Below are positions 10,401-29,015 of a stretch of DNA of 64,000 nucleotides, piece by piece. Both the position numbers and the translations under genes were made by a program. Numbering within the stretch: the first letter of the stretch is position 1; each line of letters opens with the position of its first letter. The notes under the pieces are model-generated. The model saw nothing but the letters and a program-made list of their open reading frames with translations. It searched no databases and had not been told where the DNA came from. Source of the DNA: a bacterium (GTDB taxonomy: Bacteria; SAR324; NAC60-12); the NCBI GenBank assembly GCA_965233585.1, contig CBDDTI010000745.1, forward strand, positions 384,001-448,000. Reading direction: 5' to 3'.

Positions 10401-11837
10401 ATTAGACAACAACGAAATTAACTTGAACAACCCTATCTACAACAGTAGAAATTAAATAAGTCTATTAGACATCATTTTCCGAAACTTGGAGAAACCAATC
10501 TACAACAGTAGAAATTAAATAAGTCTATTAGACAATTCAGGAGGGTATCATTCCCATTCTAATCTACAACAGTAGAAATTAAATAAGTCTATTAGACATG
10601 GAGGGGGGAACATTCTCAACACATCTACAACAGTAGAAATTAAATAAGTCTATTAGACAAAAAGAATTACGTCCCATTCTGGAGATCTACAACAGTAGAA
10701 ATTAAATAAGTCTATTAGACATGATGATAATTATCATCATCATCTAATCTACAACAGTAGAAATTAAATAAGTCTATTAGACATTACTGGATTGGATATA
10801 TGTAAATCCATCTACAACAGTAGAAATTAAATAAGTCTATTAGACTTCACAACTATAAATCTTCACAACTAATCTACAACAGTAGAAATTAAATAAGTCT
10901 ATTAGACCCTCTCAATAGACTGGTGCTGGGTTCATCTACAACAGTAGAAATTAAATAAGTCTATTAGACCTAGCTTCTCAAAAGCAAATGACTCAGAATC
11001 TACAACAGTAGAAATTAAATAAGTCTATTAGACAAAAAGAATTACGTCCCATTCTGGAGATCTACAACAGTAGAAATTAAATAAGTCTATTAGACATGAT
11101 GATAATTATCATCATCATCTAATCTACAACAGTAGAAATTAAATAAGTCTATTAGACATTACTGGATTGGATATATGTAAATCCATCTACAACAGTAGAA
11201 ATTAAATAAGTCTATTAGACTTCACAACTATAAATCTTCACAACTAATCTACAACAGTAGAAATTAAATAAGTCTATTAGACCCTCTCAATAGACTGGTG
11301 CTGGGTTCATCTACAACAGTAGAAATTAAATAAGTCTATTAGACCTAGCTTCTCAAAAGCAAATGACTCAGAATCTACAACAGTAGAAATTAAATAAGTC
11401 TATTAGACAAGATTTGGATTTGAGGAAGATGAAACCATCTACAACAGTAGAAATTAAATAAGTCTATTAGACACTTTGATGTCTGCTGCTCCGTATTATC
11501 TACAACAGTAGAAATTAAATAAGTCTATTAAACAAAAATAACTTACAAAATTGACAATTAATCTACAACAGTAGAAATTAAATAAGTCTATTAGACATGC
11601 AAGATTTAATAGCTTTTTCAGAAATCTACAACAGTAGAAATTAAATAAGTCTATTAGACCAATTCAATAAGAGTATTCTCTCACACCATCTACAACAGTA
11701 GAAATTAAATAAGCCTATTAGACAGGTTTGTATCATTCTATGATTCCGGATCTACAACAGTAGAAATTAAATAAGTCTATTAGACATGGAAAAGCAACAG
11801 AAATGTTACTTATCTACAACAGTAGAAATTAAATAAG

Positions 11838-12636
11838 GGCATTGTTAAGTAATAAGTGATAGCTGATTATTCCGTTGGCATTGTTAAGTAATAAGTGATA
11901 GTTGATTATTCCGTTTTGCCATGAACAAAAGAACAGAATATTGTAATGCTTTAAGAGACTTGCTGTAACATTTGGTTTTCCTTCTCATTCTTGCCAAGAA
12001 ATGTCTCAAGAGAGAATTATACCCTTCTACCGTGTATGTTTCTGCCTTGGAACATGTATGAATTTCTTTGGGAATGACTTGTTTGTAAGCCTTCCAGTGA
12101 TCAGTCATCACCTGAAGAGGTTTTGTTTCCTTGACCTTGTCCCATAAATGCCTACAGGCTTTTGAGTCTCTGTTTCCAAGCACACAATTGATAAATTGCT
12201 TCCCACATCTATCAACAGCAATCCAGAGCCAGCAGTAGTTTTTTTTGACTGGATGTAGGTGTGCATTTCATCAATTTCCATAATTTCAATGTCTGTGTCC
12301 TTTCTTAATGCCTTGAGCTGTTCGCCAAAACTACAGACCCAATTATAAACTGAAACATGAGAACAATTCAGCAAACGACCGATTGACCTGAAACCAAGAC
12401 CCTCCAAATACAACTCTAATGCTCTTCTTTTGATCTGTGGTGAGATTTGACCACGATAGGACTTGGTATATTGATAGTTGCAGGCATTGCAACGCCTCCT
12501 CGGTTTACCATATAAAAAACCATTCTTAACCATCTTCTCACTTTCACATCTAGGACACGACTTCATTGCTACACCATGACTATCAATTCAATTAAATGAA
12601 CTTAATATCGCATATCACTTATAGTTTAACAATACC
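11838..12636 (-). mobile_element. IS1-family element inserted in a CRISPR repeat (intact unit 11877-12636 plus a 39-bp duplicated end at 11838-11876)
   Basis: IRs GGCATTGTTAA / TTAACAATACC. InsA ORF 12108-12566 (CPRC...CNAC, GLGFRSIGRLL). A8C slippery site at ~12238-12247. InsB part ends at 11884 (VMTDHWKAY, TYTVEGYNSLLRHFLAR). Flanked by duplicated GAAATTAAATAAG. Confidence 0.95.
11884..12566 (-). CDS. IS1-family transposase InsAB' (programmed -1 frameshift)
   Basis: Two overlapping ORFs joined at AAAAAAAAC; DDE residues in EIDE, MTD and VEGYN all present; no internal stop seen. Confidence 0.85.
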
Positions 12637-15600
12637 GAAATTAAATAAGTCTATTAGACAAAGATTCAACAACATTTCTGAGCCTAATCTACAACAGTAG
12701 AAATTAAATAAGTCTATTAGACATCTGTGTTTTACATGGTTTTCTATCTTTATCTACAACAGTAGAAATTAAATAAGTCTATTAGACCTATTTGAGCAAA
12801 GGTCAATCTTGAATATCTACAACAGTAGAAATTAAATAAGTCTATTAGACTTAGACAAAAACCTTTTAGACGACCTATCTACAACAGTAGAAATTAAATA
12901 AGTCTATTAGACTAAGAGAAAAAAAATATCCGTGCCAAATCTACAACAGTAGAAATTAAATAAGTCTATTAGACGTGATGTTTGAGACACACCATCTTTT
13001 ATCTACAACAGTAGAAATTAAATAAGTCTATTAGACAGAATCATCAGACTCAATAGATTCAAATCTACAACAGTAGAAATTAAATAAGTCTATTAGACTA
13101 TAATGTTTAATCATTATTCTCTTAATCTACAACAGTAGAAATTAAATAAGTCTATTAGACTTTATTCTAAAAAATAAAATGAATAACATCTACAACAGTA
13201 GAAATTAAATAAGTCTATTAGACCCCCTAAAGTGATTTTTTTTGCATATTATCTACAACAGTAGAAATTAAATAAGTCTATTAGACATAAATACCCTAAA
13301 TTAGTTTGATTATATCTACAACAGTAGAAATTAAATAAGTCTATTAGACAACAATCAAAGAATCTTCAGAATCAAATCTACAACAGTAGAAATTAAATAA
13401 GTCTATTAGACAGAATTTTCTTTGACAAATCCTAGTTTATCTACAACAGTAGAAATTAAATAAGTCTATTAGACAAAGCACTGTCAGCAGAAAACCACAC
13501 ATCTACAACAGTAGAAATTAAATAAGTCTATTAGACCAAAAAAAATATGATGAACTCAATAACATCTACAACAGTAGAAATTAAATAAGTCTATTAGACG
13601 TCATTCAATCGCAACAAGAGTTGATTATCTACAACAGTAGAAATTAAATAAGTCTATTAGACGTTTTGGATTTAAGCCTAGTAAATACAATCTACAACAG
13701 TAGAAATTAAATAAGTCTATTAGACACAAACTTCATTTTTAGAAGAGAAACCATCTACAACAGTAGAAATTAAATAAGTCTATTAGACGATGCAAGAGCT
13801 AATAGCTTATGCAATATCTACAACAGTAGAAATTAAATAAGTCTATTAGACCAAGAACTCAAGAAATTGAATCTTTTATCTACAACAGTAGAAATTAAAT
13901 AAGTCTATTAGACAAGCGACAAAACAACTGGCATTTTGTATCTACAACAGTAGAAATTAAATAAGTCTATTAGACCGCATTCGTAATAGGGAGGATCCAG
14001 AATCTACAACAGTAGAAATTAAATAAGTCTATTAGACAAGAGGGGAACGAACTGTTTCCCCTTATCTACAACAGTAGAAATTAAATAAGTCTATTAGACG
14101 GGGAGCAGTCAGCTACATTGCTTCAATCTACAACAGTAGAAATTAAATAAGTCTATTAGACTCTGATTGGTTTCGGAAGATCAAAAAAATATCTACAACA
14201 GTAGAAATTAAATAAGTCTATTAGACGAGAAAAAAGTTTTGGAAATTGAACTCATCTACAACAGTAGAAATTAAATAAGTCTATTAGACCGCCAGTGCGG
14301 CAGAAAAATCAGCCACATCTACAACAGTAGAAATTAAATAAGTCTATTAGACTTTTAGATGCTGGTCAAGGTGTCCAAATCTACAACAGTAGAAATTAAA
14401 TAAGTCTATTAGACTTTTAGATGCTGGTCAAGGTGTCCAAATCTACAACAGTAGAAATTAAATAAGTCTATTAGACTCAAAAAATGGTCTATCTCTTTTG
14501 TCATCTACAACAGTAGAAATTAAATAAGTCTATTAGACGGTCTAAAAATGGTTTATCTCTTCTTTATCTACAACAGTAGAAATTAAATAAGTCTATTAGA
14601 CCTTCAAATAGGTCTATCTTCATATTGGATCTACAACAGTAGAAATTAAATAAGTCTATTAGACATTCAAATAATTATATGCGTTCCTTAATCTACAACA
14701 GTAGAAATTAAATAAGTCTATTAGACATTCAGATTTTGACAAATCTAATTATATCTACAACAGTAGAAATTAAATAAGTCTATTAGACGTGTGCTAGACT
14801 AGAGGCTTCTTTGGAATCTACAACAGTAGAAATTAAATAAGTCTATTAGACTCTTCAAAAGTAGAAGACCATCATGCCATCTACAACAGTAGAAATTAAA
14901 TAAGTCTATTAGACTGATGTAGCAAAAGTAACACCACCATATCTACAACAGTAGAAATTAAATAAGTCTATTAGACGTGTGCTAGACTAGAGGCTTCTTT
15001 GGAATCTACAACAGTAGAAATTAAATAAGTCTATTAGACCTTTCTCTGATAATGGAATGCCAACTATCTACAACAGTAGAAATTAAATAAGTCTATTAGA
15101 CTCTAATCTTTTAGCGCTTCTTTGGAATCTACAACAGTAGAAATTAAATAAGTCTATTAGACTTGAAAAACTGGGTTTTGATGCAAGTTATCTACAACAG
15201 TAGAAATTAAATAAGTCTATTAGACTTTAGTAACTAATCAATTCTTTTCCATATCTACAACAGTAGAAATTAAATAAGTCTATTAGACTTTGCGGAGTGG
15301 CTCCAGTGGAGCTGTATCTACAACAGTAGAAATTAAATAAGTCTATTAGACCGCAAGTTTTTGGATTTGGAACTGATATCTACAACAGTAGAAATTAAAT
15401 AAGTCTATTAGACAACAAAATAAACACAGAATTGAACAATGATCTACAACAGTAGAAATTAAATAAGTCTATTAGACTGTAAAGCATAAGACTCCTGCAC
15501 TCCATCTACAACAGTAGAAATTAAATAAGTCTATTAGACCGAGATGACCTAGCAGCAAGAATCGGATCTACAACAGTAGAAATTAAATAAGTCTATTAGA

Positions 15601-18600
15601 CTCAAAAAAAAAATGACATTTCCACTTTATCTACAACAGTAGAAATTAAATAAGTCTATTAGACTGTGCTAGACTAGATGATTCTTTAGAATCTACAACA
15701 GTAGAAATTAAATAAGTCTATTAGACGAGTATAGGAATCTTTTTGGACTCTTATCTACAACAGTAGAAATTAAATAAGTCTATTAGACGTATTTATAAAT
15801 ATTGATTCCTCTACATCTACAACAGTAGAAATTAAATAAGTCTATTAGACATCAGAATCCAAAGACTCATCAGAATCATCTACAACAGTAGAAATTAAAT
15901 AAGTCTATTAGACTTCCGAGTACTTTTGACTTGCAAAAGATCTACAACAGTAGAAATTAAATAAGTCTATTAGACGATGAAAATTAACCTATAGAATAAA
16001 ATCTACAACAGTAGAAATTAAATAAGTCTATTAGACAAGGAGAGCTAGGAGTAGTTAATTCGTATCTACAACAGTAGAAATTAAATAAGTCTATTAGACT
16101 TAAAAGGATCAATAGAAACAGAATAATCTACAACAGTAGAAATTAAATAAGTCTATTAGACGTTAAGTCCTAATGAAGATCATATTACATCTACAACAGT
16201 AGAAATTAAATAAGTCTATTAGACTATTGACCCAACAGACATGAGAACAAATCTACAACAGTAGAAATTAAATAAGTCTATTAGACCCTAAACATGTTTA
16301 ACTTCTGTGAGTATCTACAACAGTAGAAATTAAATAAGTCTATTAGACCAGAGCATCATTGAGCGTTTTATTTATCTACAACAGTAGAAATTAAATAAGT
16401 CTATTAGACAACCAGATTGGTGAGCCAAATAAGCAAATCTACAACAGTAGAAATTAAATAAGTCTATTAGACCCGACAATCAACATTTTAAGAACATACA
16501 TCTACAACAGTAGAAATTAAATAAGTCTATTAGACATTTTTATCTTCCCTTTTTTCTCTGGTATCTACAACAGTAGAAATTAAATAAGTCTATTAGACGA
16601 TCGCATTGCATCTATCAGGAGAAAATCTACAACAGTAGAAATTAAATAAGTCTATTAGACCTCTTCAGGTTTGACTTTTCCTTCTTTATCTACAACAGTA
16701 GAAATTAAATAAGTCTATTAGACATTGAATCGGAGCGGTTTTGATTCAAATCTACAACAGTAGAAATTAAATAAGTCTATTAGACATGTAGATTGTTTAC
16801 ATTGCGGGCATTATCTACAACAGTAGAAATTAAATAAGTCTATTAGACGATTCTTTAATTGGTTCTGATGAGTCTATCTACAACAGTAGAAATTAAATAA
16901 GTCTATTAGACCCTCATCAGGAGCGTCAGGACGATCAGATCTACAACAGTAGAAATTAAATAAGTCTATTAGACGCGCCATTGACCAGTGGCTTCAGTTG
17001 ATCTACAACAGTAGAAATTAAATAAGTCTATTAGACACACATCGCATCTATTCCCTTATCCCTATCTACAACAGTAGAAATTAAATAAGTCTATTAGACG
17101 TGATGACGTTCCCCCGAGAAAACAGACATCTACAACAGTAGAAATTAAATAAGTCTATTAGACTGGTGAAAGAGCAGGCAGACATACTCATCTACAACAG
17201 TAGAAATTAAATAAGTCTATTAGACTTTGTTACCTTTATCTCCTGTCTGTCCCTATCTACAACAGTAGAAATTAAATAAGTCTATTAGACAAATTGAAAG
17301 TCTTCAGCGTTTCACTATCTACAACAGTAGAAATTAAATAAGTCTATTAGACACTACTGCCAAACGATTCAAATCTGAATATCTACAACAGTAGAAATTA
17401 AATAAGTCTATTAGACATTACAAGTGGAATCATAGCAGTGAAAAATCTACAACAGTAGAAATTAAATAAGTCTATTAGACCCTGATGCAATGGAGGGATC
17501 AAGTCCATCTACAACAGTAGAAATTAAATAAGTCTATTAGACTCGTAAAGTTAAAAATTCTTCTGGAAATCTACAACAGTAGAAATTAAATAAGTCTATT
17601 AGACATTGACAGAAGGAATGATGTTAAGAATCTACAACAGTAGAAATTAAATAAGTCTATTAGACAATGAATGGGCTTAAAGCAAAAACTTTGATCTACA
17701 ACAGTAGAAATTAAATAAGTCTATTAGACCAAACTTCGCTGAATATCTAAGTCTAATCTACAACAGTAGAAATTAAATAAGTCTATTAGACAGAGAGGTG
17801 TAGAGGTTACACTCAATATCTACAACAGTAGAAATTAAATAAGTCTATTAGACTTTTTTATCTTGTAAATTGTAAACAGAATCTACAACAGTAGAAATTA
17901 AATAAGTCTATTAGACGTCCGTCAAATGGTCTCGCTGTTCAACATCTACAACAGTAGAAATTAAATAAGTCTATTAGACGTCCGTCAAATGGTCTCGCTG
18001 TTCAACATCTACAACAGTAGAAATTAAATAAGTCTATTAGACATTGTTGATTCCTTTGTTTATTCTGTATCTACAACAGTAGAAATTAAATAAGTCTATT
18101 AGACAAAATGAATACAGAAACAAACCATGATGATCTACAACAGTAGAAATTAAATAAGTCTATTAGACATTTATTATTTATAATGAGACCATTGATCTAC
18201 AACAGTAGAAATTAAATAAGTCTATTAGACAAAATTAAAGAAAACTCATTGGCTATAATCTACAACAGTAGAAATTAAATAAGTCTATTAGACAAAATCA
18301 ACAACATTGTTGGTCACCGCATCTACAACAGTAGAAATTAAATAAGTCTATTAGACCTCACTGGCATTGACTTTTCTAGTGCATCTACAACAGTAGAAAT
18401 TAAATAAGTCTATTAGACGAGATTTATTTTTTTGAATCTTATTTTATCTACAACAGTAGAAATTAAATAAGTCTATTAGACAGATGAGAATGACAACTTA
18501 TTTGACTATCTACAACAGTAGAAATTAAATAAGTCTATTAGACCTCACAAAAAAACCAGCATGCTGGCAATCTACAACAGTAGAAATTAAATAAGTCTAT

Positions 18601-20723
18601 TAGACTAAACCTAAACAATCCCAAGACTCTTATCTACAACAGTAGAAATTAAATAAGTCTATTAGACAGGATAAAAATGACAAAGAAAATAAAAATCTAC
18701 AACAGTAGAAATTAAATAAGTCTATTAGACGGAGTTACGTTGACTGCAGACAATGTATCTACAACAGTAGAAATTAAATAAGTCTATTAGACTCCCCGTT
18801 GGCTACATCGTTACCAGTATCTACAACAGTAGAAATTAAATAAGTCTATTAGACGGTTTTAATCTTGTCCAGCCTCCTGAATCTACAACAGTAGAAATTA
18901 AATAAGTCTATTAGACATTTTTCAGATATGTTTACAACGAAACATCTACAACAGTAGAAATTAAATAAGTCTATTAGACAGTCTTGTTGTCAAAGTCAAA
19001 GACAAATCTACAACAGTAGAAATTAAATAAGTCTATTAGACGAGATTGCGGGTCAAGCCCGCAATCTCATCTACAACAGTAGAAATTAAATAAGTCTATT
19101 AGACGCTAAAGCAGTCACCTCTGTCGCTTTATCTACAACAGTAGAAATTAAATAAGTCTATTAGACCAAGAGATCACCATTGCATGGTGCAAATCTACAA
19201 CAGTAGAAATTAAATAAGTCTATTAGACTGATTCAATGTTTTTTAACCTTTATTATCTACAACAGTAGAAATTAAATAAGTCTATTAGACTCTACTCCAG
19301 TCAAAAAAAGACCGCATCTACAACAGTAGAAATTAAATAAGTCTATTAGACCAAGGAGAACAACATGTTTCATTTTTTATCTACAACAGTAGAAATTAAA
19401 TAAGTCTATTAGACTTTTAGATTTTTCATTTTCTCCTTTAAATCTACAACAGTAGAAATTAAATAAGTCTATTAGACTTGGGCTTCACAGGTTGCCCATT
19501 GATGATCTACAACAGTAGAAATTAAATAAGTCTATTAGACCTTCCCTGTTGAGCTGAAACAATAAATCTACAACAGTAGAAATTAAATAAGTCTATTAGA
19601 CAAGCAAGCTTTAGCAAATTCCCCTCATCTACAACAGTAGAAATTAAATAAGTCTATTAGACACGGAAAGCATTGCCACGATTTCAGGATCTACAACAGT
19701 AGAAATTAAATAAGTCTATTAGACGAATTAATCCATGTTTATCAAGTGTATCTACAACAGTAGAAATTAAATAAGTCTATTAGACTCTGGGTTGACAACT
19801 ACGTATTTGTGTATCTACAACAGTAGAAATTAAATAAGTCTATTAGACTCATGGCTTCGAACTCGCCTATCGCAACATCTACAACAGTAGAAATTAAATA
19901 AGTCTATTAGACTCAAAATCTGCAGGTTTGGACTTCAATCTACAACAGTAGAAATTAAATAAGTCTATTAGACGTTTTTCAATGGATCATTTTGAATGAA
20001 TCTACAACAGTAGAAATTAAATAAGTCTATTAGACTGTATTGGATTTTTTCACCCGCGATGATCTACAACAGTAGAAATTAAATAAGTCTATTAGACAGA
20101 CAAAAAAAAATCGTGTTCAAAACATCTACAACAGTAGAAATTAAATAAGTCTATTAGACAATCAAACAAAACATAATGCGTTAACAATCTACAACAGTAG
20201 AAATTAAATAAGTCTATTAGACGGTATCACAATCGTGATTTGTTTTACATCTACAACAGTAGAAATTAAATAAGTCTATTAGACACAGAAATGAAATAAA
20301 TCTAAACATGCTATCTACAACAGTAGAAATTAAATAAGTCTATTAGACCCTCTCCATACCTTATCACGGACAAAGATCTACAACAGTAGAAATTAAATAA
20401 GTCTATTAGACGCCTTATGTCTCTGCATGGATAGAGACGATCTACAACAGTAGAAATTAAATAAGTCTATTAGACCATATTCACTAGTTTTTGAATCCAT
20501 AATCTACAACAGTAGAAATTAAATAAGTCTATTAGACATGAGTTTATCAATATTTATTGATGAATCTACAACAGTAGAAATTAAATAAGTCTATTAGACA
20601 CTAAAATGTCATAAATATCGTCAATATCTACAACAGTAGAAATTAAATAAGTCTATTAGACCAAAGACTCTTCAGTCCCGTCAGTCTATCTACAACAGTA
20701 GAAATTAAATAAGTCTATTAGAC

Positions 20724-20996
20724 AGATAACATGCCTGCAACCCGCATATCTTGGTGAAAAAACAAAGACAAAAGTGCGAATTTTGAGCGATTTCTGCCAT
20801 TAAGACCGAGGTTTGCAATTTTTCAAGAAAGAAGCGATCCATCAGCGGTATCACTCCTCACTTCGCACCCCACACATTGACAACAGTCAAGACCCAAAGA
20901 AGGCTTTTAAAAGTGCGACCAAAATTGCCTAAAAAAGCACGATAGACTTTAGCCTAATAGACAAGTCAGCCATTCTAAACGTTCTTATCTCACAAG
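20724..20996 (-). promoter_or_regulatory. CRISPR leader
   Basis: 273-bp non-coding region between the cas2 stop and the first repeat in transcription direction. Confidence 0.75.
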
Positions 20997-21272
20997 TCAA
21001 GAGATCATTATCAAATCAGACTCATCATTTTTGGCATAACCAAAACGTGTGATTTTGCATTGTTGGCTTAAATTAAAAATGATGATGCTGTCTGACTGGC
21101 TAAACGATTTGCTAAAGTCTGTCTCTATCTGCGTTTCAATCAAGTCCAAAATTCGTTTGCTATTTTCAATCTCAAAGACTGAATATTGCAGACGGTAGCC
21201 AAATTTTTTAAGAAACTCTGAGAACCTTGTCCGCAAAGGTGTCTCTGAAATATCATACGTCACAATCAACAT
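20997..21272 (-). CDS. cas2: CRISPR-associated endonuclease Cas2
   Basis: MLIVTYDIS...LKKFGYRLQYSVFEI, 91 aa, adjacent to cas1 and the array. Confidence 0.96.
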   Translation of the reverse strand: MLIVTYDISETPLRTRFSEFLKKFGYRLQYSVFEIENSKRILDLIETQIETDFSKSFSQSDSIIIFNLSQQCKITRFGYAKNDESDLIMIS

Positions 21273-21284
21273 GTCATACCTCCT

Positions 21285-22283
21285 CTATTGAATTTGCTTG
21301 GTTTCATTCTTTGCCTGACGCCTCATGCTAAAAACAGGGTAGTCCGCAATGGGCTTGTCCCTCATAAAAGAACGATAATAACTTTGCATATACAAAAACA
21401 TCTCTATCTTATACTCCAGCAAAACCTCCATATAAAGTTGAGTGTAAGGCTTGGCGTCTTTGCCAAAAAGTTTATATTGATTGTTGATGACCTTAAAATC
21501 TTCTTCTTTCACTTGTCCCAGCTGATACGCCTTGCGTGTCCTGTAATCAATCAAAGGACGGAACGGCTCTATCAAATCACAAACCAACGCCTTGCGTTGA
21601 AAAAACTCTTTGTGATACACGCCACGATACAAATCAAACCCGTAAATCTGCAAAAGAGCCTCAATCAAGTTAAACAACAAGGTATAGCCAATATCCAGCA
21701 AACAATTAATAGAATCTGCCTTCACTCTGGGTCTTCTGGCTTGCCAAGGATACACAGAAAAGATTTGCTTAAAATACACCCGCGAGGCAATCCCTTCCAG
21801 CCCCAAAATCTGCTGCAAATCTAAACCCTCCGTTTGAAGTTGCCCCCGATACTCCTTTAAACTGCTGATGGCTCTTTGGCAAGCAAGCGACTTTTCACGA
21901 ATCCGACCCAACGCCTCAATTTGATTGGACAACTTATTGCCTACCAGATGCCTTGCCACCTCAAGCCCGTCATAGTCATATTGTTTTTTTCTCAAACGGA
22001 CATTGCCCTCTATTTTCGTATTCCAAGACCCGTAAGGACGCAGACCATAATTCAAAAAAATGATGCTAAACCCAAACCGCTTAGCACGTTCCAACAAGCC
22101 AGAACTCACCGTACAATGACCCGAGATAAACAAAGCAAACAAACGATGACAAGTAGATTGATGCTTCAGCTGACCCTCCTTGTCATAAATCATAATATTG
22201 TCATTTTTGTAGCTAAATTTTTCTCCTAGGTTAGAAAACACAAAGAGAATCTGCTTCTTTTCAAAATCTGGTTTACTCAACAT
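21285..22283 (-). CDS. cas1: Type V-A CRISPR-associated endonuclease Cas1
   Basis: Likely start MLSKPDFEKKQI (ATG at 22283, overlapping the cas4 end); ILGLEGIASRVYF, INCLLDIGYTLL, GVYH, LVCDLIEPFRPLID. Confidence 0.96.
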   Translation of the reverse strand: MLSKPDFEKKQILFVFSNLGEKFSYKNDNIMIYDKEGQLKHQSTCHRLFALFISGHCTVSSGLLERAKRFGFSIIFLNYGLRPYGSWNTKIEGNVRLRKKQYDYDGLEVARHLVGNKLSNQIEALGRIREKSLACQRAISSLKEYRGQLQTEGLDLQQILGLEGIASRVYFKQIFSVYPWQARRPRVKADSINCLLDIGYTLLFNLIEALLQIYGFDLYRGVYHKEFFQRKALVCDLIEPFRPLIDYRTRKAYQLGQVKEEDFKVINNQYKLFGKDAKPYTQLYMEVLLEYKIEMFLYMQSYYRSFMRDKPIADYPVFSMRRQAKNETKQIQ

Positions 22284-22839
22284 CAGCCAAAGAATAATCG
22301 CAAAGGTTATGATAAATACAGCCACGACATTTAGCCGCAACAGGCGTAAAGTCTGCACTCATGTCAAAATCCCTCAAATCAGCAAGGCATTGTTCAAAGG
22401 CTTGAAAATCTTCAGGGCTATCTTCAGGCTTCTTCACGGGGTAACTTTTGTTGTCAACCATGCTGTACAACTTCAACTTCTCCACCTCATACCCCATCTC
22501 ACGCAAACAAAAATACTGGGCATACAACTGAAAAATATAACCCTGATACACCAGCCGAATCTGACGTTTACGTTCCACCAACTCCCGCTTCTTCTCATCA
22601 TAAATGTCAATCTTTCCGCACAATCCGTAACGTTCACAATACACATCTATCCCCTGCAACACATGACGAGAGGTGCTGTAACCCTTTTCATCAATACTCT
22701 GATGCGCCGCACGACCCTTCCTTTGAGCCGTGCCATGATACAACCACTCTGACGTCTGTGCATACAGCTGATGAAAGTAAATAGAACGAGGACAAAACAG
22801 AAAATCATTTAAATACGAAATTAAAATGTAACTCTCCAT
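22273..22839 (-). CDS. cas4: Type V-A CRISPR-associated protein Cas4
   Basis: LNDFLFCPRSIYFH, GKIDIY, LVERK, QLYAQYFCL, C-terminal CRGCIYHNLC Fe-S cysteines; RBS GGAGG upstream. Confidence 0.96.
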   Translation of the reverse strand: MESYILISYLNDFLFCPRSIYFHQLYAQTSEWLYHGTAQRKGRAAHQSIDEKGYSTSRHVLQGIDVYCERYGLCGKIDIYDEKKRELVERKRQIRLVYQGYIFQLYAQYFCLREMGYEVEKLKLYSMVDNKSYPVKKPEDSPEDFQAFEQCLADLRDFDMSADFTPVAAKCRGCIYHNLCDYSLADVE

Positions 22840-22918
22840 TCAAAACCCTCCTCAAAAACTCAAAAGACTAAAAAAACAAAAAATCTAACATCACGAAAAT
22901 TCAACATCACAAAAGCCC

Positions 22919-22981: not shown

Positions 22982-25900
22982 TTAGTCCTCTTCACTGTCT
23001 TTGTTGATAATCTCATACTTTGCCTTTTGCTTTTCTACAATTTCCTCCTTTTGAGAAAAATTTTGCCAATCAGTTTTTGTAATAGATAAATTCAGTTTAT
23101 CCTCCTCTTTCTCCTTAACAAAATCTCTTATTCTTTCCAATATCATGACTCCTTTTCTAGCAATGTTATAAGCTCCATTAGCATCGCTATCTACTGGCAA
23201 AGGAGCTTCACTTGGTTTATAGTTTTTTAACTGCCTACTATCAAAAAAAGGTTCAACAGGAGAAAGGATAAAATCATCTTTATTATTTTGGTCTCCTATA
23301 AAAACTCTCATATCTAAAAGCCGCTTCAAGTAAGCAATCAGTTTTGCTAAAAATTTAGATTCTTCAAATTGTTCTGTTAAATCTTGGCTACAAATAAAAT
23401 CCTTATAATCCTTGTTTTCTAAACCATCTTTTAACTCCTTATTGAATAAATCTACTAGTTTTTGATTGACATCAACTTTGACATTTTTTCTCCATTTGCC
23501 ATTAACTGCTTCTTTATATTCATCTTGTTTTCTTTGTTCTTCCGTTAGTTTAACCTCTTTATATTGCGACCTTTCTACATGACTACAAATAGTCCAAATC
23601 TTATTGATTTTTTCTTCATCTAAATCTTTCTTATCCTCATAAGACCCTGTCATTCCCTTTAGATTTTTTAAATTATAGGTAAATTCAAAAAACTTACCAT
23701 TGTATTTAATAGAATTAAATTTGCTAAAAAACTCTTGAGCTTTTTTAGCCTCGCTATACTTAGGATAAAGTCCTCTCATATATCCCGTGACAGGATCAGT
23801 TTTAGATGTATAACTAGCATCAGTGTAAAACAAAATTCCAGATTGAATTCCTATGTCACTAAAAGTTTTAAATTTATTAGTAAGTTGATAACCTTTTAGG
23901 TAATGTCCTGTTTTCTCAAAATCAGTTTCTTTTTTGTTCACTAAATAGTTAAGTTTATGGATCAATGCCATTTCAAACTTCTGATAAACCTGTTTTTCAA
24001 ATTTAAATCTTCCCCCTTTAAATCCAGCATTTAGGTTTTCTAAAACTACAATCGCATTATGTTTTAAGATTAACTGAGCAAGCTGATGCACGACTTGAGA
24101 AAGATAACCGTTTTTTAAGTCTTTGATGTTTTCTACTTTTTCCCAATTCTCTCTTGCTTTTCCTCTTGCTTTTTGTTTCTCATCTAATTTTTGATGATAA
24201 TCTATTTTTTGAGTTTCTTGACTTCCAGCAGGTTGAAAACCACTGTCAATTTCATTAAAACTTCCTTGTTCTAAAATTTTACCGTCTTTATCAATGACAC
24301 TATAATAAAGTAAATTCTTTTCACCCCTGTCTATCCCGATAATATTAATATCTTGGTAATGTTCTTTAAGAAAATCATTAATATCACTACTAATGTAGTC
24401 TCTCCCCTCGCTTTTAAAATTAATGGTAATCGAACAATGGAATAAAATTTTATCTTCACTATATCTTTTATCCTTTATTATTGGATAGCTGAATTTACTT
24501 TTTAACTCTTGGTAATGATGCCCTTTTTCTCTTTTTTCTTTTGAATAATTTAAAGAAGCCTTACGATAAAAAAGCTCTGCCTGTCCGTTGAGCTTAATAA
24601 CAACATCCTTTAAATTTTGCTCTTCAAATAATGCTTTCCAATAAATTGTATGAAGGTTAGGTCTGCCTTGACTTCTTTTTGAAAAATCTTTACTGTAAAT
24701 TTCAAAGAGATAAAATTTTTGATTTTCTACCATTCTATCCACATAAGATTGTGAGATATTAGAAAATTCTATTTTGTAGCCTTGCTTATTAATATCATCT
24801 GTAAACTCTTTTAGATTGTTGTACTCTTCAGTTTTTTCAAATTTTAAATCTGCCCATTTCCAGTAGCTTAAAGCACATTTTTTATAGTAATCAATAAGTT
24901 TTATCAAATCTTCTTTTACTATATCAGTACCTTTGTATGTTCCTTTTTCTCTTATTTTTTGTATTTCAGGACAATGTTTTTTCCTTATGACATCTAATCC
25001 TTTGGTAAATCTTTCCGCTTTACCATTGACATAAACCAAGTTATGAATATCTAATGCTGGATTAGCAACCTGTTTATAATCCATTTTTTTATACATGGAA
25101 GAATGATCACTTAGCAAGCTCAAATCAATTTCTAACCCCTGTATCTCTTCTTGAAGTATTGATATTTCAGACTTTAATTCTTTGTAAGTTTTTGTTCCTT
25201 CTTTCTTTTCAGAAAGATTTTTTTCTTTCTTTTTAATTTTTTTCTTTTTATCTTCTAAATCTTTCTCTAATTTAGTAAAATCAAAAAGATTTTTATTGTC
25301 TCTGCTCATTATCCCAAGATAATACTTTCCATCTTTGAGCAAAATGACACAAGTATTATCGGTTTCTTTGTTTTTATCCCAACCATTTGCCAACGTAGGA
25401 TTTTCAAAATTCAACTTGTACTTATCTTCATTAAATTCTTTTTTTGTTAAAAAATTTCTCACTTTATTATAGAATTTTGTAATATTATTCCTATCGGAAT
25501 TAGTAAATCTAATCACCGTATCATTCCAAATTTGTTCTTGATTTGCCCCCTTATCCGAATGAGTAAAATCTTTTTCCTTAACATTGAAACTTCTTAAAAA
25601 TCGGTATAAATCTTGTGAAGCGTCAAGATATTTTTTAATACTATTCTTTTCTTCTTGTTCAAAAGGATTTGTTAAACACTTCGCATTTTCTAGAATCTTT
25701 GAGTTTTCTAAATTTCTTAAATGCTCTTTTTGTTGCTTTAACAAATAAGTAAATTTATTCGCCAAATAAGTAAACAAAAAATCTTCTTCTGGCAAATCTT
25801 TTAAAAAAGCTCTTTTCTTTTTTATACCCTCTTGTTGATCTACTTGTCCAAAATTATCTTTTATTGGCTTAATAAATTGAGTATAAAAATTTGCTGATTC

Positions 25901-27616
25901 TTTCTTTTCTTCTTCTCCCAGATTAATCCATTCTCTTTTTTCATTTAACTTTTTCTGTAATTCTCCAAAAGTATAAACTTTTCTTCGGTGTTGCTTTTTG
26001 ACTTCTTTATCGTCAAAACTAGCTAAATACCAAGTTTCAAGACCTTTCCAACTAGATACTAAATCTTGCGAAAAAAACCTTAAAACTTCTTTGCTAACAT
26101 AAACATCATCTAAGTTTAGATGACTTCCATCATCTTTGTTTTGTTCTTTTCCATATTCCAATAATTCTGTAAAAGATAAATCACCGTTCTCTTTTTGAGT
26201 TTTATCTATATCTCTTATAAAATCTTCTTCTTTTTCTACAAATTTTTTTAATTCTTCTATAAGATGTTTATTGTCTTGAATTGTTTCAATGAATGCTCCT
26301 TTTTTACTTAAAATTTGTTTATAAAATTCTTTTAGAGATGGAAAGTTTTTTCTATCACCATCAATCTGTTGCCTTGTCAGATTAATAATTTCATTGAGTC
26401 CTTGTATTTTGGGGTTTTGTTCCTCTGCTTTCTGTCCCCCGATTATCAGATTATAGTCATCTACTCCTGTTTGAGAAAAGAATCTAAAAAAACTTTCAGG
26501 ACTCAAAAAAACTTCTGCTGAAAAATTTAGCTGTCGTTCTACTTTTCCTATTCTTTCCTGAAAATTCCAACTTTTTTCTTCCAGTTGTTTTTTAATTTCT
26601 TCTTTATTTAAGTATTCTTTTAACTTTTGCCATTTCAAAATATTATCAAAATGAAATTTTATATTCTGCTCAAATAAACGAAAAGCAATAGAAGTAGATT
26701 TAAAAATGCTATCTTTATTTTTAGCATTCTTATTTTCAATATCATAAACATTCTGTCTTGTTGTATTAAAGCCAGAAAAATAAGTATGAAAGGCATCAAA
26801 TTTTTTGATTGAATCAGTTACCTCTTGATTGTTAATAAAATATAACCTTAACAAAGTGAACAGATTATCAGTTTTGTCATAAAGATTTTTAGATTCAGAG
26901 AATTTGTAACCCTCGCATTTTTTGAGTTCTTTAATCTCTTTTTTTAAGTTGTTGATTTTTTGTTCCAATTCTTCTTTTTGTTTTATAAACTCTTCTTTCT
27001 GTTCTTTACTTTCCTTTAAAGTTTTTTTAATTTTTTGTTGTAGGTCACCTTTATAACTTTCAAGCTCATTTTTTTCTTCTTGTTTTTCATCAAGAAGATT
27101 TTCAAGATATTCTCTTTGCTCTGTAAAATTTTCTTCCAAAAATTTTGGAGCATTGGTATCAAGAACACTTTTTAAGTGCTTAGCAAGTTGTTTTTGAATT
27201 TCTATAATTTCTTTGTTATTCTTATCAATTTTACTGATAATTGCTTCTTGGTTTTCTGATTGTTTCTTCTTTTTTAGGTTTTTTAACTCTTTTTTTAAAG
27301 TTACATTTTCAGAATACTTTCCATAAAATTTATTAATTTCATCTTTTAATAAATTTTTAATTTCTTCTGACAAATTTTCTTTATCTAAGGCAAAAGATAA
27401 AAAATGACGGTGCAAGTCGTCTATTGCTTTTTTCACTTGCCTATATACCTCTGATTTTTCCCAATCTTCATAAATGAGTGGAGATAAAGGATTATTAAAA
27501 TCACTTTCCTCTTTTAGCTTTCTTATAATTTCTCTAGTCGCTCCCACAGGTTCCAAGCCAAAGCGAAGGGTTTTTTGCAACGAATATTGATTAATGAATT
27601 TTTTGAAAATGCTCAT
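22982..27616 (-). CDS. cas12a: Type V-A effector Cas12a (Cpf1), 1544 aa
   Basis: N-terminal FINQYSLQKTLRFGLEPVG, FYNKVRNFLTKK, KLNFENPTLANGWDKNKE, NLHTIYWKALF, RuvC-I IIGIDRGEKNLLY, RuvC-II IVVLENLN, RuvC-III DSDANGAYNIARKG; all three catalytic acidic residues present. Confidence 0.98.
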   Translation of the reverse strand: MSIFKKFINQYSLQKTLRFGLEPVGATREIIRKLKEESDFNNPLSPLIYEDWEKSEVYRQVKKAIDDLHRHFLSFALDKENLSEEIKNLLKDEINKFYGKYSENVTLKKELKNLKKKKQSENQEAIISKIDKNNKEIIEIQKQLAKHLKSVLDTNAPKFLEENFTEQREYLENLLDEKQEEKNELESYKGDLQQKIKKTLKESKEQKEEFIKQKEELEQKINNLKKEIKELKKCEGYKFSESKNLYDKTDNLFTLLRLYFINNQEVTDSIKKFDAFHTYFSGFNTTRQNVYDIENKNAKNKDSIFKSTSIAFRLFEQNIKFHFDNILKWQKLKEYLNKEEIKKQLEEKSWNFQERIGKVERQLNFSAEVFLSPESFFRFFSQTGVDDYNLIIGGQKAEEQNPKIQGLNEIINLTRQQIDGDRKNFPSLKEFYKQILSKKGAFIETIQDNKHLIEELKKFVEKEEDFIRDIDKTQKENGDLSFTELLEYGKEQNKDDGSHLNLDDVYVSKEVLRFFSQDLVSSWKGLETWYLASFDDKEVKKQHRRKVYTFGELQKKLNEKREWINLGEEEKKESANFYTQFIKPIKDNFGQVDQQEGIKKKRAFLKDLPEEDFLFTYLANKFTYLLKQQKEHLRNLENSKILENAKCLTNPFEQEEKNSIKKYLDASQDLYRFLRSFNVKEKDFTHSDKGANQEQIWNDTVIRFTNSDRNNITKFYNKVRNFLTKKEFNEDKYKLNFENPTLANGWDKNKETDNTCVILLKDGKYYLGIMSRDNKNLFDFTKLEKDLEDKKKKIKKKEKNLSEKKEGTKTYKELKSEISILQEEIQGLEIDLSLLSDHSSMYKKMDYKQVANPALDIHNLVYVNGKAERFTKGLDVIRKKHCPEIQKIREKGTYKGTDIVKEDLIKLIDYYKKCALSYWKWADLKFEKTEEYNNLKEFTDDINKQGYKIEFSNISQSYVDRMVENQKFYLFEIYSKDFSKRSQGRPNLHTIYWKALFEEQNLKDVVIKLNGQAELFYRKASLNYSKEKREKGHHYQELKSKFSYPIIKDKRYSEDKILFHCSITINFKSEGRDYISSDINDFLKEHYQDINIIGIDRGEKNLLYYSVIDKDGKILEQGSFNEIDSGFQPAGSQETQKIDYHQKLDEKQKARGKARENWEKVENIKDLKNGYLSQVVHQLAQLILKHNAIVVLENLNAGFKGGRFKFEKQVYQKFEMALIHKLNYLVNKKETDFEKTGHYLKGYQLTNKFKTFSDIGIQSGILFYTDASYTSKTDPVTGYMRGLYPKYSEAKKAQEFFSKFNSIKYNGKFFEFTYNLKNLKGMTGSYEDKKDLDEEKINKIWTICSHVERSQYKEVKLTEEQRKQDEYKEAVNGKWRKNVKVDVNQKLVDLFNKELKDGLENKDYKDFICSQDLTEQFEESKFLAKLIAYLKRLLDMRVFIGDQNNKDDFILSPVEPFFDSRQLKNYKPSEAPLPVDSDANGAYNIARKGVMILERIRDFVKEKEEDKLNLSITKTDWQNFSQKEEIVEKQKAKYEIINKDSEED

Positions 27617-27654
27617 AATAATTCCTAGAATTGAGTTAATGAAAAAACCAATCA

Positions 27655-27682
27655 GGATAGCATGGCTTTCACAAGAATCAAA
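27655..27682 (-). promoter_or_regulatory. Putative sigma70 promoter for cas12a
   Basis: Minus strand TTGATT-N16-TATCCT with an extended -10 TG, about 40 nt upstream of the ATG. Confidence 0.35.
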
Positions 27683-27863
27683 GATTTTTCTGCCATTTTG
27701 CGAGAGCTGACCCTTGCTGTCTTTGAAGGCAAGCCTTTTGGTGATTTTGCAAAAAAGATTGCAAAGAAGATGAAAAGAGAAAAAGAAGTCAGGCAGATTG
27801 TGTGAATCTGAACGATAGGTTTGGCTGGAATGATAGAGTTTTCTTTGGGACTAAATGAAGAAC

Positions 27864-29015
27864 CTAAATGAAAGAACTTGCAGTCTGGCGTCCCCACCTG
27901 TCAGCTTCAAAATAGCATTCTAAATCTTGGGTATGATGAAAATCCTGACAAGCAGTTTTCCATTGTTGCATGACACGTTGCAGGGTGGTTGCGATGTCAG
28001 TCAAACCGATGTGTTCGTCAAGAAACGCCTTAACAACACACTCATTTGCACCATTCAACACTGCAGGTGCAAGACCTCCCAAAGATGCGGCATCAAGTGC
28101 AATCTGAAAGCAGGGATAACGTTTGTGACAAATCGGCTCAAAATGCAAGGTGTTTAAACCTTGAGCAGACAATCGGGGCAGTTTGAGAGGAAGCCTTTGA
28201 GGAAAGGATAAGCAGTAAGCAATGGGGAGCCGCATGTCTGGTGCAGACATTTGAGCCATCATAGATCCGTCCACGTATTCTACTAAAGAATGCACATGGC
28301 TTTGCCTATGAATCACAGCTTGAAAAGAAGCAAGGGGAATGTCAAACAAATGAGAGGCTTCCATGAGTTCCAAACCCTTGTTCATCATGGTTGCAGAATC
28401 TACCGTAATCTTGTCTCCCATCTCCCAGTTAGGGTGTTGCAAGACTTCATGCCGTTTGACCTTTGGCAGTTGTTCCAGCGGAACATCACGCAAAGCCCCC
28501 CCAGATGCTGTTAACGTGATTTGATGAACATCTTCTTTCTGCTGTCCTTGCAATGTTTGAAAAATGCCATTGTGTTCGCTGTCCACTGGCAAAATCAGGC
28601 TTCCTGAACGTCTAGCTTCACTCATCATCAAATCCCCTGCCAGCACTAAGGATTCTTTGTTTGCCAAAGCAACAGTCTTGCCTGCACAAATCGCCGCGTA
28701 TGTTGACCTTGCCCCTGCAACACCTACAATGGCAGCCACCACAAAATCCACTTGCGAAAGACTCGCCACCTGTTGTAACCCTTCGCTCCCATGCAATAAC
28801 TTCAGATGCTCTGGCAACGCCCCCAAATCTATCTGTTGCTCTGACGCCACACAGGCAAAAGCAGGCTGGAACTCTTGAATTTGAGAATACAAAAGGTCTG
28901 TGTTGGAATAGCAAGTTAAGGCTTCCACTTGGAAGTGTTCAGGGAATTGCCTGACAATGTCCAACGTACTTTGACCAATAGACCCTGTTGAACCCAAAAT
29001 GGCAATCTTTTTCAC
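27864..29015 (-). CDS. dxr: 1-deoxy-D-xylulose-5-phosphate reductoisomerase
   Basis: ILGSTGSIG, LANKESLV, LPVDSEH, HPNWEMGDKITVDSATMMNKGLE. Confidence 0.97.
   Translation of the reverse strand: MKKIAILGSTGSIGQSTLDIVRQFPEHFQVEALTCYSNTDLLYSQIQEFQPAFACVASEQQIDLGALPEHLKLLHGSEGLQQVASLSQVDFVVAAIVGVAGARSTYAAICAGKTVALANKESLVLAGDLMMSEARRSGSLILPVDSEHNGIFQTLQGQQKEDVHQITLTASGGALRDVPLEQLPKVKRHEVLQHPNWEMGDKITVDSATMMNKGLELMEASHLFDIPLASFQAVIHRQSHVHSLVEYVDGSMMAQMSAPDMRLPIAYCLSFPQRLPLKLPRLSAQGLNTLHFEPICHKRYPCFQIALDAASLGGLAPAVLNGANECVVKAFLDEHIGLTDIATTLQRVMQQWKTACQDFHHTQDLECYFEADRWGRQTASSFI

Follow-up and report, generated by a model that had tools for sequence, protein, structure and literature searches.

The 1544-aa product of one open reading frame in the window (the whole 64,000-nt stretch of DNA analyzed) is, judged from its sequence, an intact and unusually long Cas12a, a type V-A effector belonging to a branch of large family members. 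The enzyme is thus of a known type, though this relative is unstudied, and it does not represent a new kind of system. In our overall reading, which we consider probable, the protein (hereafter the query) is a functional type V-A Cas12a whose extra length consists mostly of inherited surface hairpins, perhaps acting as steric or structural decoration, and whose gene looks recently transferred. The locus is ordered cas12a-cas4-cas1-cas2-leader-array on one strand, with cas4, cas1, and cas2 directly downstream of cas12a:

22982..27616, minus strand: cas12a coding sequence (P0001), 1544 aa (open reading frame list, Pfam, NCBIfam, and PDB sequence matches)
22273..22839, minus strand: cas4, 188 aa (Pfam Cas_Cas4, 29.7 bits)
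21285..22358, minus strand: cas1, 357 aa if the listed GTG start is used (Pfam Cas_Cas1, 168 bits)
20997..21272, minus strand: cas2, 91 aa (Pfam CRISPR_Cas2, 49 bits)
20724..20996, minus strand: putative leader separating cas2 from the first repeat (from position only)
7545..20723, minus strand: CRISPR array of 197 intact 36-nt repeats, 129 leader-proximal and 68 distal (repeat search)
11838..12636, minus strand: IS1-family element, 799 bp, interrupting a single repeat (13 bp of repeat sequence duplicated at its flanks)

The preliminary description had called the protein an oversized Cas12a of 1544 aa, and this was borne out. The assignment follows from the score against the NCBIfam Cas12a equivalog model TIGR04330 (776.7 bits; cut-off, 300), matches to four Pfam domains (RuvC_1, REC1, NUC, and Cpf1_PI-like), fold superposition, invariant catalytic residues, a canonical repeat, the accompanying cas4-cas1-cas2 genes, and the 197 repeats. 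All 26 PDB sequences matched at an E value of ≤0.001 were Cas12a/Cpf1 or the ReChb protein. Cas12a2 and Cas12a3 are RNA-triggered relatives with Cas12a repeats, in which divergent domains replace the PI and Nuc domains of Cas12a. Both were rejected as identities for the query on the basis of this domain description, given its Cas12a-type NUC and PI Pfam domains, its TIGR04330 score, and its 26 PDB matches.

Repeats were exact in 194 of 197 cases, with one mismatch in each of the other 3, and spacers were 25 to 29 nt long. The Cas12a stem-loop TCTACTGTTGTAGAT closes the repeat (coding-strand end AATTTCTACTGTTGTAGAT, the 5′-handle stem-loop, in 197 copies) and was also present in the arrays of 62 of 80 related loci. 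The array had been described as nearly mutation free, which holds for its repeats; the array itself is interrupted by the IS1 element, and 18 spacers occur twice. The earlier view that the system is active fits a locus that looks intact in its cas genes, catalytic residues, and array.

The three RuvC motifs, reported at the outset as intact, were located as follows:

24320..24340, minus strand: RuvC-I motif IGIDRGE, aa 1093-1099, with D1096 (motif position, clade alignment)
24029..24043, minus strand: RuvC-II motif LENLN, aa 1192-1196, with E1193 (motif position, clade alignment)
23165..23191, minus strand: RuvC-III motif DSDANGAYN, aa 1476-1484, with D1478 (motif position, clade alignment)

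D1096, E1193, and D1478 were invariant in a 12-sequence clade alignment, as was R1437 (in LLDMRV), the conserved arginine of the Nuc domain (Pfam RuvC_1, 288.7 bits; NUC, 59.3 bits). By homology, the enzyme would itself process the pre-crRNA made from the 36-nt repeats, recognize a PAM via WED, REC1, and PI before R-loop formation, and cut DNA at a single RuvC site with Nuc assistance. The WED-III ribonuclease residues for pre-crRNA processing are presumably those at Fn positions 843 (His), 852 (Lys), and 869 (Lys). In the HMMER alignment, both lysines were present in the query and Fn 843 faced an Asn. A GHH conserved in the clade stands in a gappy loop, 11 to 12 residues beyond the position aligned to Fn H843, and precedes the IIKDKR lysine by 14 to 15 residues in the query versus 26 in Fn. 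Because the processing-site histidine is thus out of register with Fn H843, processing by the query is ascribed by homology only.

The extra residues, roughly 240 to 300 in total, are spread over four surface sites, namely, REC1, REC2 (∼40 extra aa), WED-II, and Nuc:

27128..27367, minus strand: REC1 helices aa 84-117 and 121-163, the canonical REC1 pair (AF2, alignment)
27221..27307, minus strand: tip extension of this pair, aa ∼104-132, ∼28 aa (alignments)
26912..27124, minus strand: second REC1 helical hairpin, aa 165-235, helices 165-198 and 204-235 (AF2, alignments)
25094..25306, minus strand: WED-II linker, 71 aa (771-841), with a two-helix hairpin at aa 781-836 (motif positions, AF2, alignments)
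23366..23659, minus strand: variable Nuc segment, aa 1320-1417, ∼27 extra residues (homolog distances, alignments)

The K/E-rich, heptad-like character claimed for REC1 was confirmed, with 23% K, 18% E, and hydrophobic residues recurring every 3.5 to 3.6 residues across aa 84-240. In the canonical pair, the second half of helix 121-163 (IQKQLAKHL..LD) matched a helix found in all Cas12a sizes (L-INS-i, 21 hand-picked sequences), and Q141, L144, D153, and F159 at the helix base were invariant in the 12-sequence clade alignment. The tip extension, which contains a weak 22-bp direct repeat (27230-27271), was present at full length only in the query when compared with its 11 nearest relatives; on these alignments, it alone is peculiar to this protein. 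The second hairpin is clade specific, shortened in P0009, P0011, and P0012 and missing from small Cas12a proteins. Indels among relatives fall at aa 118-120 and 199-203, both predicted to be breaks between helices, which is where hairpin tips should vary.

In WED-II, exactly 71 aa lie between YYLGIM (765-770) and YKKMDYK (842-848), as first counted. The anchor-to-anchor distance was 77 in the query; across 120 homologs, the median was 39 and the 10th percentile 25, and linkers at this site ranged from 25 to 83 aa. Homologs of the LbCas12a size class had distances of 25 to 30 aa, in agreement with the short LbCas12a linker given in the preliminary description. The hairpin is located at the tip of the WED-II beta-hairpin and consists of helices aa 781-803 (net charge, +4) and 809-836 (net charge, −3) with the turn motif KKEGTKTY. 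AlphaFold2 (AF2) was run on two overlapping fragments (aa 1-900 and 701-1544) and predicted both the REC1 and the WED inserts as ordered helices, in support of the helical hairpins proposed earlier (pLDDT, 93 to 98 for aa 81-240, and 88 to 97 for aa 781-830, from fragments modeled independently of each other), although AF2 tends to score long K/E-rich helices highly and pLDDT may overstate order. A check of characterized homologs showed the WED hairpin in none of the solved Cas12a sequences; all 26 PDB sequences aligned only to the first 45 to 65 residues of the piece aa 731-866. The extra Nuc sequence was also found, the string quoted in the preliminary description lying at aa 1353-1375 (nt 23492-23560); the YTSKTDP-to-DANGAYN distance was 209, versus a median of 182 in 120 homologs, an excess of ∼27 aa.

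Neither its size nor its inserts make the query singular. Phylogeny and homolog counts show inheritance within a large clade, and oversize is a clade trait, with 22 of the 118 nearest homologs at least 1,500 aa long. A homologous long WED linker or hairpin occurs in 28 of these 118 and a long REC1 N-terminal segment in 53, and homologs with either include Leptospira proteins named Cas12a by NCBI. Among 150 listed 50%-identity representatives, at least 13 aligned straight through the WED hairpin. The tree, whose midpoint root is compatible with either gain or loss of the hairpin, grouped the query with P0002 as its sister (support, 100); the pair falls in a clade (support, 100) whose 11 members are 1,405 to 1,638 aa long, 9 of them with WED linkers of at least 60 aa. 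When the 28 long-linker homologs were aligned, the turn motif KKxG[TS]KxY recurred in separate clades, and 13 of the 28 long forms measured 75 to 78 aa. Since homologous versions occur in many relatives, these alignments indicate that the REC1 and WED hairpins are inherited by descent and common to a large clade rather than newly invented here.

The best solved sequence matches were FnCas12a (PDB 5NG6, 6I1K, and 8Y0B) and ReChb Cas12a (8QWD-8QWF), with E values of 1.5e-196 and 1.9e-182; they were also the best fold matches to the C-terminal-half model (TMq, 0.67 to 0.72). Both resemble the query in the order of their domains, in the RuvC D/E/D and Nuc arginine, and in having a short WED-III (150 to 152 residues; query, 145), but they are only 1,261 to 1,300 aa long and lack the WED hairpin; ReChb has ∼12 residues opposite query aa 84-203 and ∼5 opposite aa 781-836. 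LbCas12a (PDB 5XUS and 6NMA; 1,228 aa), with a short-class WED-II linker and a short WED-III like that of the query, matched the C-terminal half at a TMq of 0.71 to 0.73 (rmsd, 4.8 to 5.1). The architecture of the query is found in its sister P0002, a large uncharacterized Cas12a (1,638 aa; 55% identity), in P0003 from a “Candidatus Woesearchaeota” MAG (locus L001; 1,556 aa; about 47 to 48% Cas12a identity), and in the Cas12a proteins of Leptospira sp. 96542 and L. ilyithenensis (P0063, 1,555 aa; P0067, 1,562 aa). All four have a homologous WED helical hairpin (linker, 67 to 77 aa) and a REC1 N-terminal segment of 207 to 248 aa, compared with 263 in the query, the longest of 120 homologs. Full-text literature searches returned no characterization of these four proteins.

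The PI domain of the query departs from the usual type at its start:

24710..25093, minus strand: PI domain region, aa 842-969 (Pfam, anchor distances)
25037..25057, minus strand: PI start ALDIHNL, aa 854-860 (homolog column comparison)

Pfam Cpf1_PI-like matched only aa 881-947 (profile positions 22-91; 44.5 bits; cut-off, 27). At the positions of L855 and N859, K is the residue in 96 and 88, respectively, of 120 homologs, and a non-K variant at the second column is common to 28 of the 120. Homologs show a KMLPK-type start, presumably that of FnCas12a, unlike the ALDIHNL of the query; the PI type also differs between the query and its sister P0002. A search for protospacers found none, and so no PAM was derived for the query system.

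The sole experimental precedent found for the function of such an insertion is the helical bundle that AsCas12a, too, carries as an insert in its WED domain and that blocks AcrVA4 sterically in swap experiments (Knott et al. 2019, eLife, PMC6711708). That bundle is described there in WED-III beside the processing nuclease, whereas the query hairpin is in WED-II. An AsCas12a-type AcrVA4 shield was rejected for the query, whose LFEIY-to-IGIDRGE distance of 123 aa falls in the short class (long class, 170 to 181) and in which the precedent site has the short, exposed Lb/Fn-like form. Over the WED-III region, the alignment to Lb, Fn, ReChb, Mb, and Lb2 (17 of 26 PDB sequences) was unbroken, and that to 8 AsCas12a variants and AmCas12a (9 of 26) split in two, so the query lacks the bundle. 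The long form was found in 14 of 118 homologs, P0002 among them.

By analogy with that bundle, the likeliest selective role of the hairpins, put forward tentatively, would be to cover surfaces exploited by anti-CRISPRs. They adjoin, in sequence, elements forming the PAM channel and would add no new chemistry. Decoration rather than core is suggested because the inserts are the least conserved regions (identity to the query, 28% for the REC1 insert and 20% for the WED hairpin, versus 44% overall). By keeping its length class and turn motif, the WED hairpin hints at a function more specific than passive shielding. The hairpins could, less probably, provide extra nucleic-acid contacts, clamping DNA upstream of the PAM or the pre-crRNA and altering PAM range, DNA loading, or processivity. 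The WED hairpin follows the TLANGWDKNKETDN loop (aa 741-754) and precedes the PI start (aa 842 onward), and the second REC1 hairpin ends ∼40 residues ahead of the TYFSGF motif; we take this loop, the PI start, and TYFSGF to be PAM-contacting elements in AsCas12a. Helices 84-117 and 781-803 contain lysine runs (KKKKIKKKEK in the latter) and have net charges of +4 each, which leaves room for local contact, and compensating contacts would make sense beside a PI start without the usual lysines. However, every basic helix has an acidic partner, and the net charge of whole inserts is near zero (aa 84-240, +3; aa 771-841, +1), which disfavors strong DNA binding and the extended DNA contacts first envisaged. 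The low conservation of the inserts also counts against such contacts, as does the fall of the lysine run on a slippage-prone T/C-rich tract.

The inserts may instead be functionless, selectively neutral low-complexity expansions tolerated at surface loops by an AT-rich gene (GC content, 28.0%; GC3, 21.5%), a possible but doubtful reading. It would accommodate their composition (54 to 69% K/E/Q/N/D/R), their low conservation, small tandem repeats within them (25218-25254 and 27230-27271), the wide range of WED-site linker lengths, and the tip extension found in the query alone; it sits poorly with the narrow length class of the WED hairpin, a turn motif kept across deep clades, retained amphipathic periodicity with confident helix prediction, and invariant residues at the base of the REC1 helices. 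That the hairpins are coiled-coil-like docking or dimerization modules recruiting Cas4-Cas1-Cas2 or a second Cas12a seems very improbable. The argument for it is that amphipathic helical hairpins generally tend to mediate protein contacts and that cas genes are adjacent; the adaptation genes, however, differ from cas12a in GC3 and nearest relatives, which argues against a coevolved interface, and relatives whose adaptation modules are diverse carry these same hairpins.

The histories of cas12a and the neighboring adaptation module are discordant. GC3 is 42 to 48% in cas4, cas1, and cas2, and the flanking genes have a GC content of ∼41%. At the nearest Cas12a locus (L001), the Cas1 match is only 37% and partial, and at the loci with the best Cas1 matches (57 to 59%), Cas12a identity is merely 32 to 42%. 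Because of this GC and GC3 gap and the mismatched nearest relatives of Cas12a and Cas1, cas12a appears to have been acquired recently from a low-GC donor and would now stand beside an adaptation module of other history.

The gene from which the analysis started is listed here:
22982..27616, minus strand: cas12a, a single open reading frame of 1544 aa

This 1544-aa Cas12a, proposed in the preliminary description, was confirmed by a score of 776.7 bits against TIGR04330 (NCBIfam equivalog for Cas12a; cut-off, 300) and carries the Pfam domains RuvC_1 (288.7 bits), REC1, NUC, and Cpf1_PI-like. Its N-terminus, MSIFKKFINQYSLQKTLRF, is the family start as in the FnCas12a alignment. All 26 distinct PDB sequences at E ≤ 0.001 were Cas12a/Cpf1 or ReChb Cas12a, with ReChb (1261 aa; E, 1.5e-196) and FnCas12a as top matches; in view of these profile and PDB matches, Cas12a2 and Cas12a3 were rejected as identities. 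The three RuvC motifs (aa 1093-1099, 1192-1196, and 1476-1484) are intact, as had been stated, and D1096, E1193, D1478, and R1437 show no variation across the aligned query and its 11 nearest homologs. In the pre-crRNA processing loop (window 24458-24541; aa ~1026-1053), the Fn histidine column holds Asn, and a clade-conserved GHH lies 14 to 15 residues ahead of the IIKDKR lysine (26 residues in Fn).

Cas12a is of major importance for genome editing and diagnostics, and to our knowledge the well-studied orthologs are all 1200 to 1370 aa long. The query and the best 119 of 2245 homologs were aligned, and residues were counted between eleven well-conserved anchor motifs.

Residues between anchor motifs, query and median of the aligned sequences
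REC1 N-terminal part (KTLRF to TYFSGF): query 263; median 187.5; longest of the 120 listed, with 140-145 in 1200-1300-aa proteins
REC2 (GLNEIINL to YNKVRN): query 310; median 270.5
WED-II linker (YYLGIM to YKKMDYK): query 77; median 39; 10th percentile 25
Nuc (YTSKTDP to DANGAYN): query 209; median 182
WED-III (LFEIY to IGIDRGE): query 123; median 125; long class of 170-181 also present

The WED-III distance therefore puts the query in the short class. HMMER left aa 84-203, 781-836, and 1320-1417 unaligned against ReChb and Fn. The sequence features first reported by eye were reproduced: exactly 71 aa (aa 771-841) lie between YYLGIM and YKKMDYK, the REC1 stretch at aa 84-240 is rich in Lys and Glu (23% K, 18% E), and Nuc is longer than the median.

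AlphaFold2 models were built for two fragments (aa 1-900 and aa 701-1544), with 85 of the 119 homologs aligned as input to each; mean pLDDT was 84.4 (pTM, 0.61) for the N-terminal and 84.8 (pTM, 0.80) for the C-terminal model. Ten-residue block means were 93-98 over aa 81-240, and the WED hairpin was predicted as helices 781-803 and 809-836 in the N-terminal model (88-97) and as helices 780-803 and 809-835 in the C-terminal model (94-97). The inserts thus come out as confident helices (pLDDT, 88-98) rather than disordered sequence, on a method that is generous to long charged helices. The extra Nuc segment was modeled for the most part as short strands (pLDDT, 62-97; C-terminal model). Foldseek searches of the PDB gave only Cas12a as top matches (TMq, 0.60-0.73 for the C-terminal half; the N-terminal half, which is flexible, reached 0.28-0.42).

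When the piece aa 731-866 was compared with the 26 PDB sequences, all aligned within its first 45 to 65 residues only; the WED hairpin therefore occurs in no solved Cas12a. Over WED-III (aa 960-1105), 17 of the 26 (Fn, ReChb, Mb, Lb2, and Lb) align as one stretch of 150-152 residues, and eight AsCas12a sequence variants and AmCas12a are split in two, which fits the helical bundle of AsCas12a (PMC6711708).

For REC1, 21 hand-picked representatives were realigned with L-INS-i. The second half of helix 121-163 (IQKQLAKHL...LD; Q141, L144, D153, and F159 invariant) is found in Cas12a of all sizes, so helices 84-117 and 121-163 form the canonical pair, which in the query alone is lengthened by ~28 residues at its tip (aa 104-132). 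Helices 165-198 and 204-235, judged from this alignment, are a true clade-specific REC1 insertion: this second pair spans ~70 aa in P0001 (the query) to P0008 and in P0010, is shorter in P0009, P0011, and P0012, and is lacking in small proteins. Relatives differ by indels in two ranges (aa ~104-132 and ~186-222) that straddle the helix breaks predicted at aa 118-120 and 199-203, a pattern expected if the breaks are hairpin tips; we infer a hairpin topology for REC1 from this agreement of alignment and model.

Among the best 120 of 2245 homologs, 118 are near full length (P0041 and P0062, fragments of <1190 aa, were dropped). Lengths of at least 1500 aa were found in 22 of these and of at least 1400 aa in 38; the REC1 N-terminal segment reaches at least 200 aa in 53/118, and the WED linker at least 60 aa in 28/118. 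In a FastTree tree on 1116 well-filled columns (insert columns largely left out), P0002 (1638 aa) is sister to the query (support, 100), and both fall within an 11-protein clade (1405-1638 aa; support, 100), nine members of which have a long WED linker. Oversize and inserts are thus an inherited clade trait and not peculiar to this protein; the tip extension remains unique to it. Once the 28 long linkers are aligned, a turn motif, KKxG[TS]KxY, and an amphipathic helix after it are seen to recur in several separate clades, and the WED hairpin is therefore homologous and old; with midpoint rooting, loss by short forms and gain by long forms are not separable. Alignment runs straight through the WED hairpin in 13 of the 150 listed 50%-identity representatives. 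NCBI-annotated Cas12a proteins of Leptospira sp. 96542 and L. ilyithenensis are 1555 and 1562 aa long, and the nearest genome match among those listed is a Candidatus Woesearchaeota metagenome-assembled genome (48% identity).

A full-text literature search found no description of these insertions. The available portions of a large survey (PMC12375029) describe screening of proteins of <1500 aa only, and those of PMC13330018 and PMC12567085 are silent on size and insertions. As a sound annotation, the query is a member of an uncharacterized large branch of a known family, which would not surprise a specialist.

Across a clade of 12 sequences, the REC1 insert has 28% identity to the query and the WED hairpin 20%, against 44% overall, 67% for WED-II, and 70% for RuvC-II. 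The two inserts carry little net charge (+3 over aa 84-240, +1 over aa 771-841), and each holds a small tandem repeat, one in the WED lysine run (25218-25254) and one in the tip extension peculiar to the query (27230-27271). Together, low identity, near-neutral charge, and tandem repeats argue for ordered but loosely constrained surface modules rather than a strongly DNA-binding element.

Several roles, not mutually exclusive, may be considered for these modules. Neutral expansion, which would agree with their loose constraint, is possible but tentative. An extra nucleic-acid contact is rather unlikely: the helices 84-117 and 781-803 are basic (each +4), yet they are paired with acidic ones, and the low net charge and conservation argue against the extension of DNA contacts put forward earlier. 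Docking of a partner is very improbable; a two-copy complex prediction of REC1 aa 60-260 (score, 0.02; mark, 0.42), run without controls, speaks neither for nor against binding. A steric, anti-anti-CRISPR role is, by analogy, a tentative possibility. In the available part of PMC6711708 (Knott et al.), domain swaps show that AcrVA4 is blocked by the AsCas12a WED-III helical bundle, and indels in Cas effectors are suggested to be possibly shaped by anti-CRISPR pressure; the query has no such bundle, and the precedent therefore applies by analogy only, from a different site. On the best-supported reading, the query would work by the ordinary Cas12a mechanism and would carry inherited, ordered helical decorations near the PAM channel.

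The PI domain of the query starts with ALDIHNL (window 25037-25057; aa 854-860), where most homologs have NKMLPK or TTMIPK. The columns of L855 and N859 hold Lys in 96/120 and 88/120 listed sequences, and the query has neither lysine; Leu occurs in the first column in 3/120 only, and 28/120 (mostly GKDIQN) have no Lys or Arg in the second. The second lysine would correspond to the one that reads the PAM (K607 in As, K595 in Lb) and is the target of AcrVA5. In P0002, the sister, the PI start is As-like and the PI segment 100 aa longer (228 aa; 128 aa in the query); even the closest relatives therefore differ in their PI module, and PI identity to the query is 22% in the 12-sequence clade. From these residues, the PAM may be non-canonical. 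In blastn-short searches of 80 related loci and the remainder of the window, the 195 spacers gave chance matches of 14-18 nt only, and neither array half had a perfect match of spacer length among 50,697 phage records; no PAM was therefore inferred. The sole strong phage-record match of the array is a repeat look-alike in Capybara microvirus Cap1_SP_161 (MK496734.1 2204-2233; positions 151-179 of the locus extracted from it), a solitary near-copy of the 3' 26-30 nt of the Cas12a repeat (TTATTTTAATTTCTACTGTTGTAGAT). It is unannotated, directly follows a CDS, has a GC hairpin with a T-run ~20 nt beyond, and looks like a lone repeat unit.

Downstream of cas12a, on the same strand, lie cas4, cas1, and cas2, then a presumed leader of 273 bp and the array. 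A 16-bp tandem repeat (2.4 copies; window 22876-22914) occupies part of the 142-bp cas12a-cas4 gap. The array has 197 intact 36-nt repeats (194 exact; 3 with a single mismatch, all leader-distal) and 195 spacers of 25-29 nt, of which 177 are unique. Eighteen spacers are present twice (positions 8084-11372, 14353-14441, 14789-15003, and 17917-18006), 15 of them in the distal, older part; blocks of four consecutive spacers (9718-9932, again at 9969-10183) and of six (10659-10997, again at 11034-11372) point to segmental duplications within the array, mostly in its older part. It is interrupted by one element:
11838-12636: IS1-family element of 799 bp, within one further CRISPR repeat

The element has a DDE_Tnp_IS1 match (44 bits), a helix-turn-helix open reading frame, two overlapping frames around an A-run, and, at one end, a 39-bp tandem duplication; it is bordered on both sides by 13 bp of duplicated repeat sequence. 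Of the intact repeats, 129 lie on its leader side and 68 on its distal side; a reading as two independent arrays, with a second leader, was rejected, since the 901-bp gap is the IS1 element in its split repeat and shows no leader similarity. The array had been called nearly mutation-free, which is true of its repeats but not of the whole, given the IS1 split and the duplicated spacers. Its 195 spacers argue for a system active in nature.

The upstream neighbors of cas12a are the housekeeping genes dxr, cdsA, uppS, and a class A PBP gene, and the closest named relatives of Dxr are SAR324-cluster bacteria, at only 53-55% identity, which would place the host there only tentatively. An 81-aa open reading frame (window 27652-27897) between dxr and cas12a overlaps the dxr end, lacks a Pfam match, and is probably not a gene. 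The whole window, compared with Rfam at gathering thresholds, yielded no match (no rRNA or tRNA).

Base composition of the locus
cas12a: GC 28.0%; GC3 21.5%
cas4: GC3 45.5%
cas1: GC3 47.8%
cas2: GC3 42.4%
Flanking genes: GC about 41%; GC3 40-49%

Of the 80 related loci, L001 (OZ242164.1, Candidatus Woesearchaeota; GC, 29%) has the Cas12a most similar to the query (47-48% identity); its Cas1 match is partial (194 aa, 37%), and its 6-kb flanks contain no repeat stem-loop motif. An archaeal, DPANN-type genome is thus the closest genomic relative, among matches listed, of this bacterial protein. The best matches for Cas1 (57-59%), Cas4 (59-63%), and Cas2 (68-70%) come from loci whose Cas12a is of ordinary size and 32-42% identical. 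The GC3 gap and the differing nearest relatives suggest a recent arrival of cas12a from a low-GC donor, either within or beside an adaptation module of other history. Effector and adaptation modules seem, from composition and similarity, to have separate histories, and the gap makes a tidy case of such separate evolution.

AcrVA1- and AcrVA5-like anti-CRISPRs attack the PAM site. Taken jointly, hairpins flanking the PAM-duplex channel and a PI lacking lysines at L855 and N859 could mark a lineage with a non-canonical PAM or DNA-loading mode, inherently insensitive to such PAM-site inhibitors, its gene a recent acquisition from a low-GC source, perhaps archaeal, that replaced a resident effector; as a whole, this reading is decidedly unlikely. 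The locus is a clean, intact example of the large Cas12a branch, with extra modules that are recurrent and, by prediction, ordered, and the query is worth an expression-and-PAM experiment. If the hairpins and PI variant are neutral, it would be an ordinary size variant. If either changes which PAM is chosen, how DNA is loaded, or how sensitive the enzyme is to anti-CRISPRs, the branch would offer new enzyme properties and a second test of the idea that anti-CRISPR pressure shapes indels in Cas effectors.
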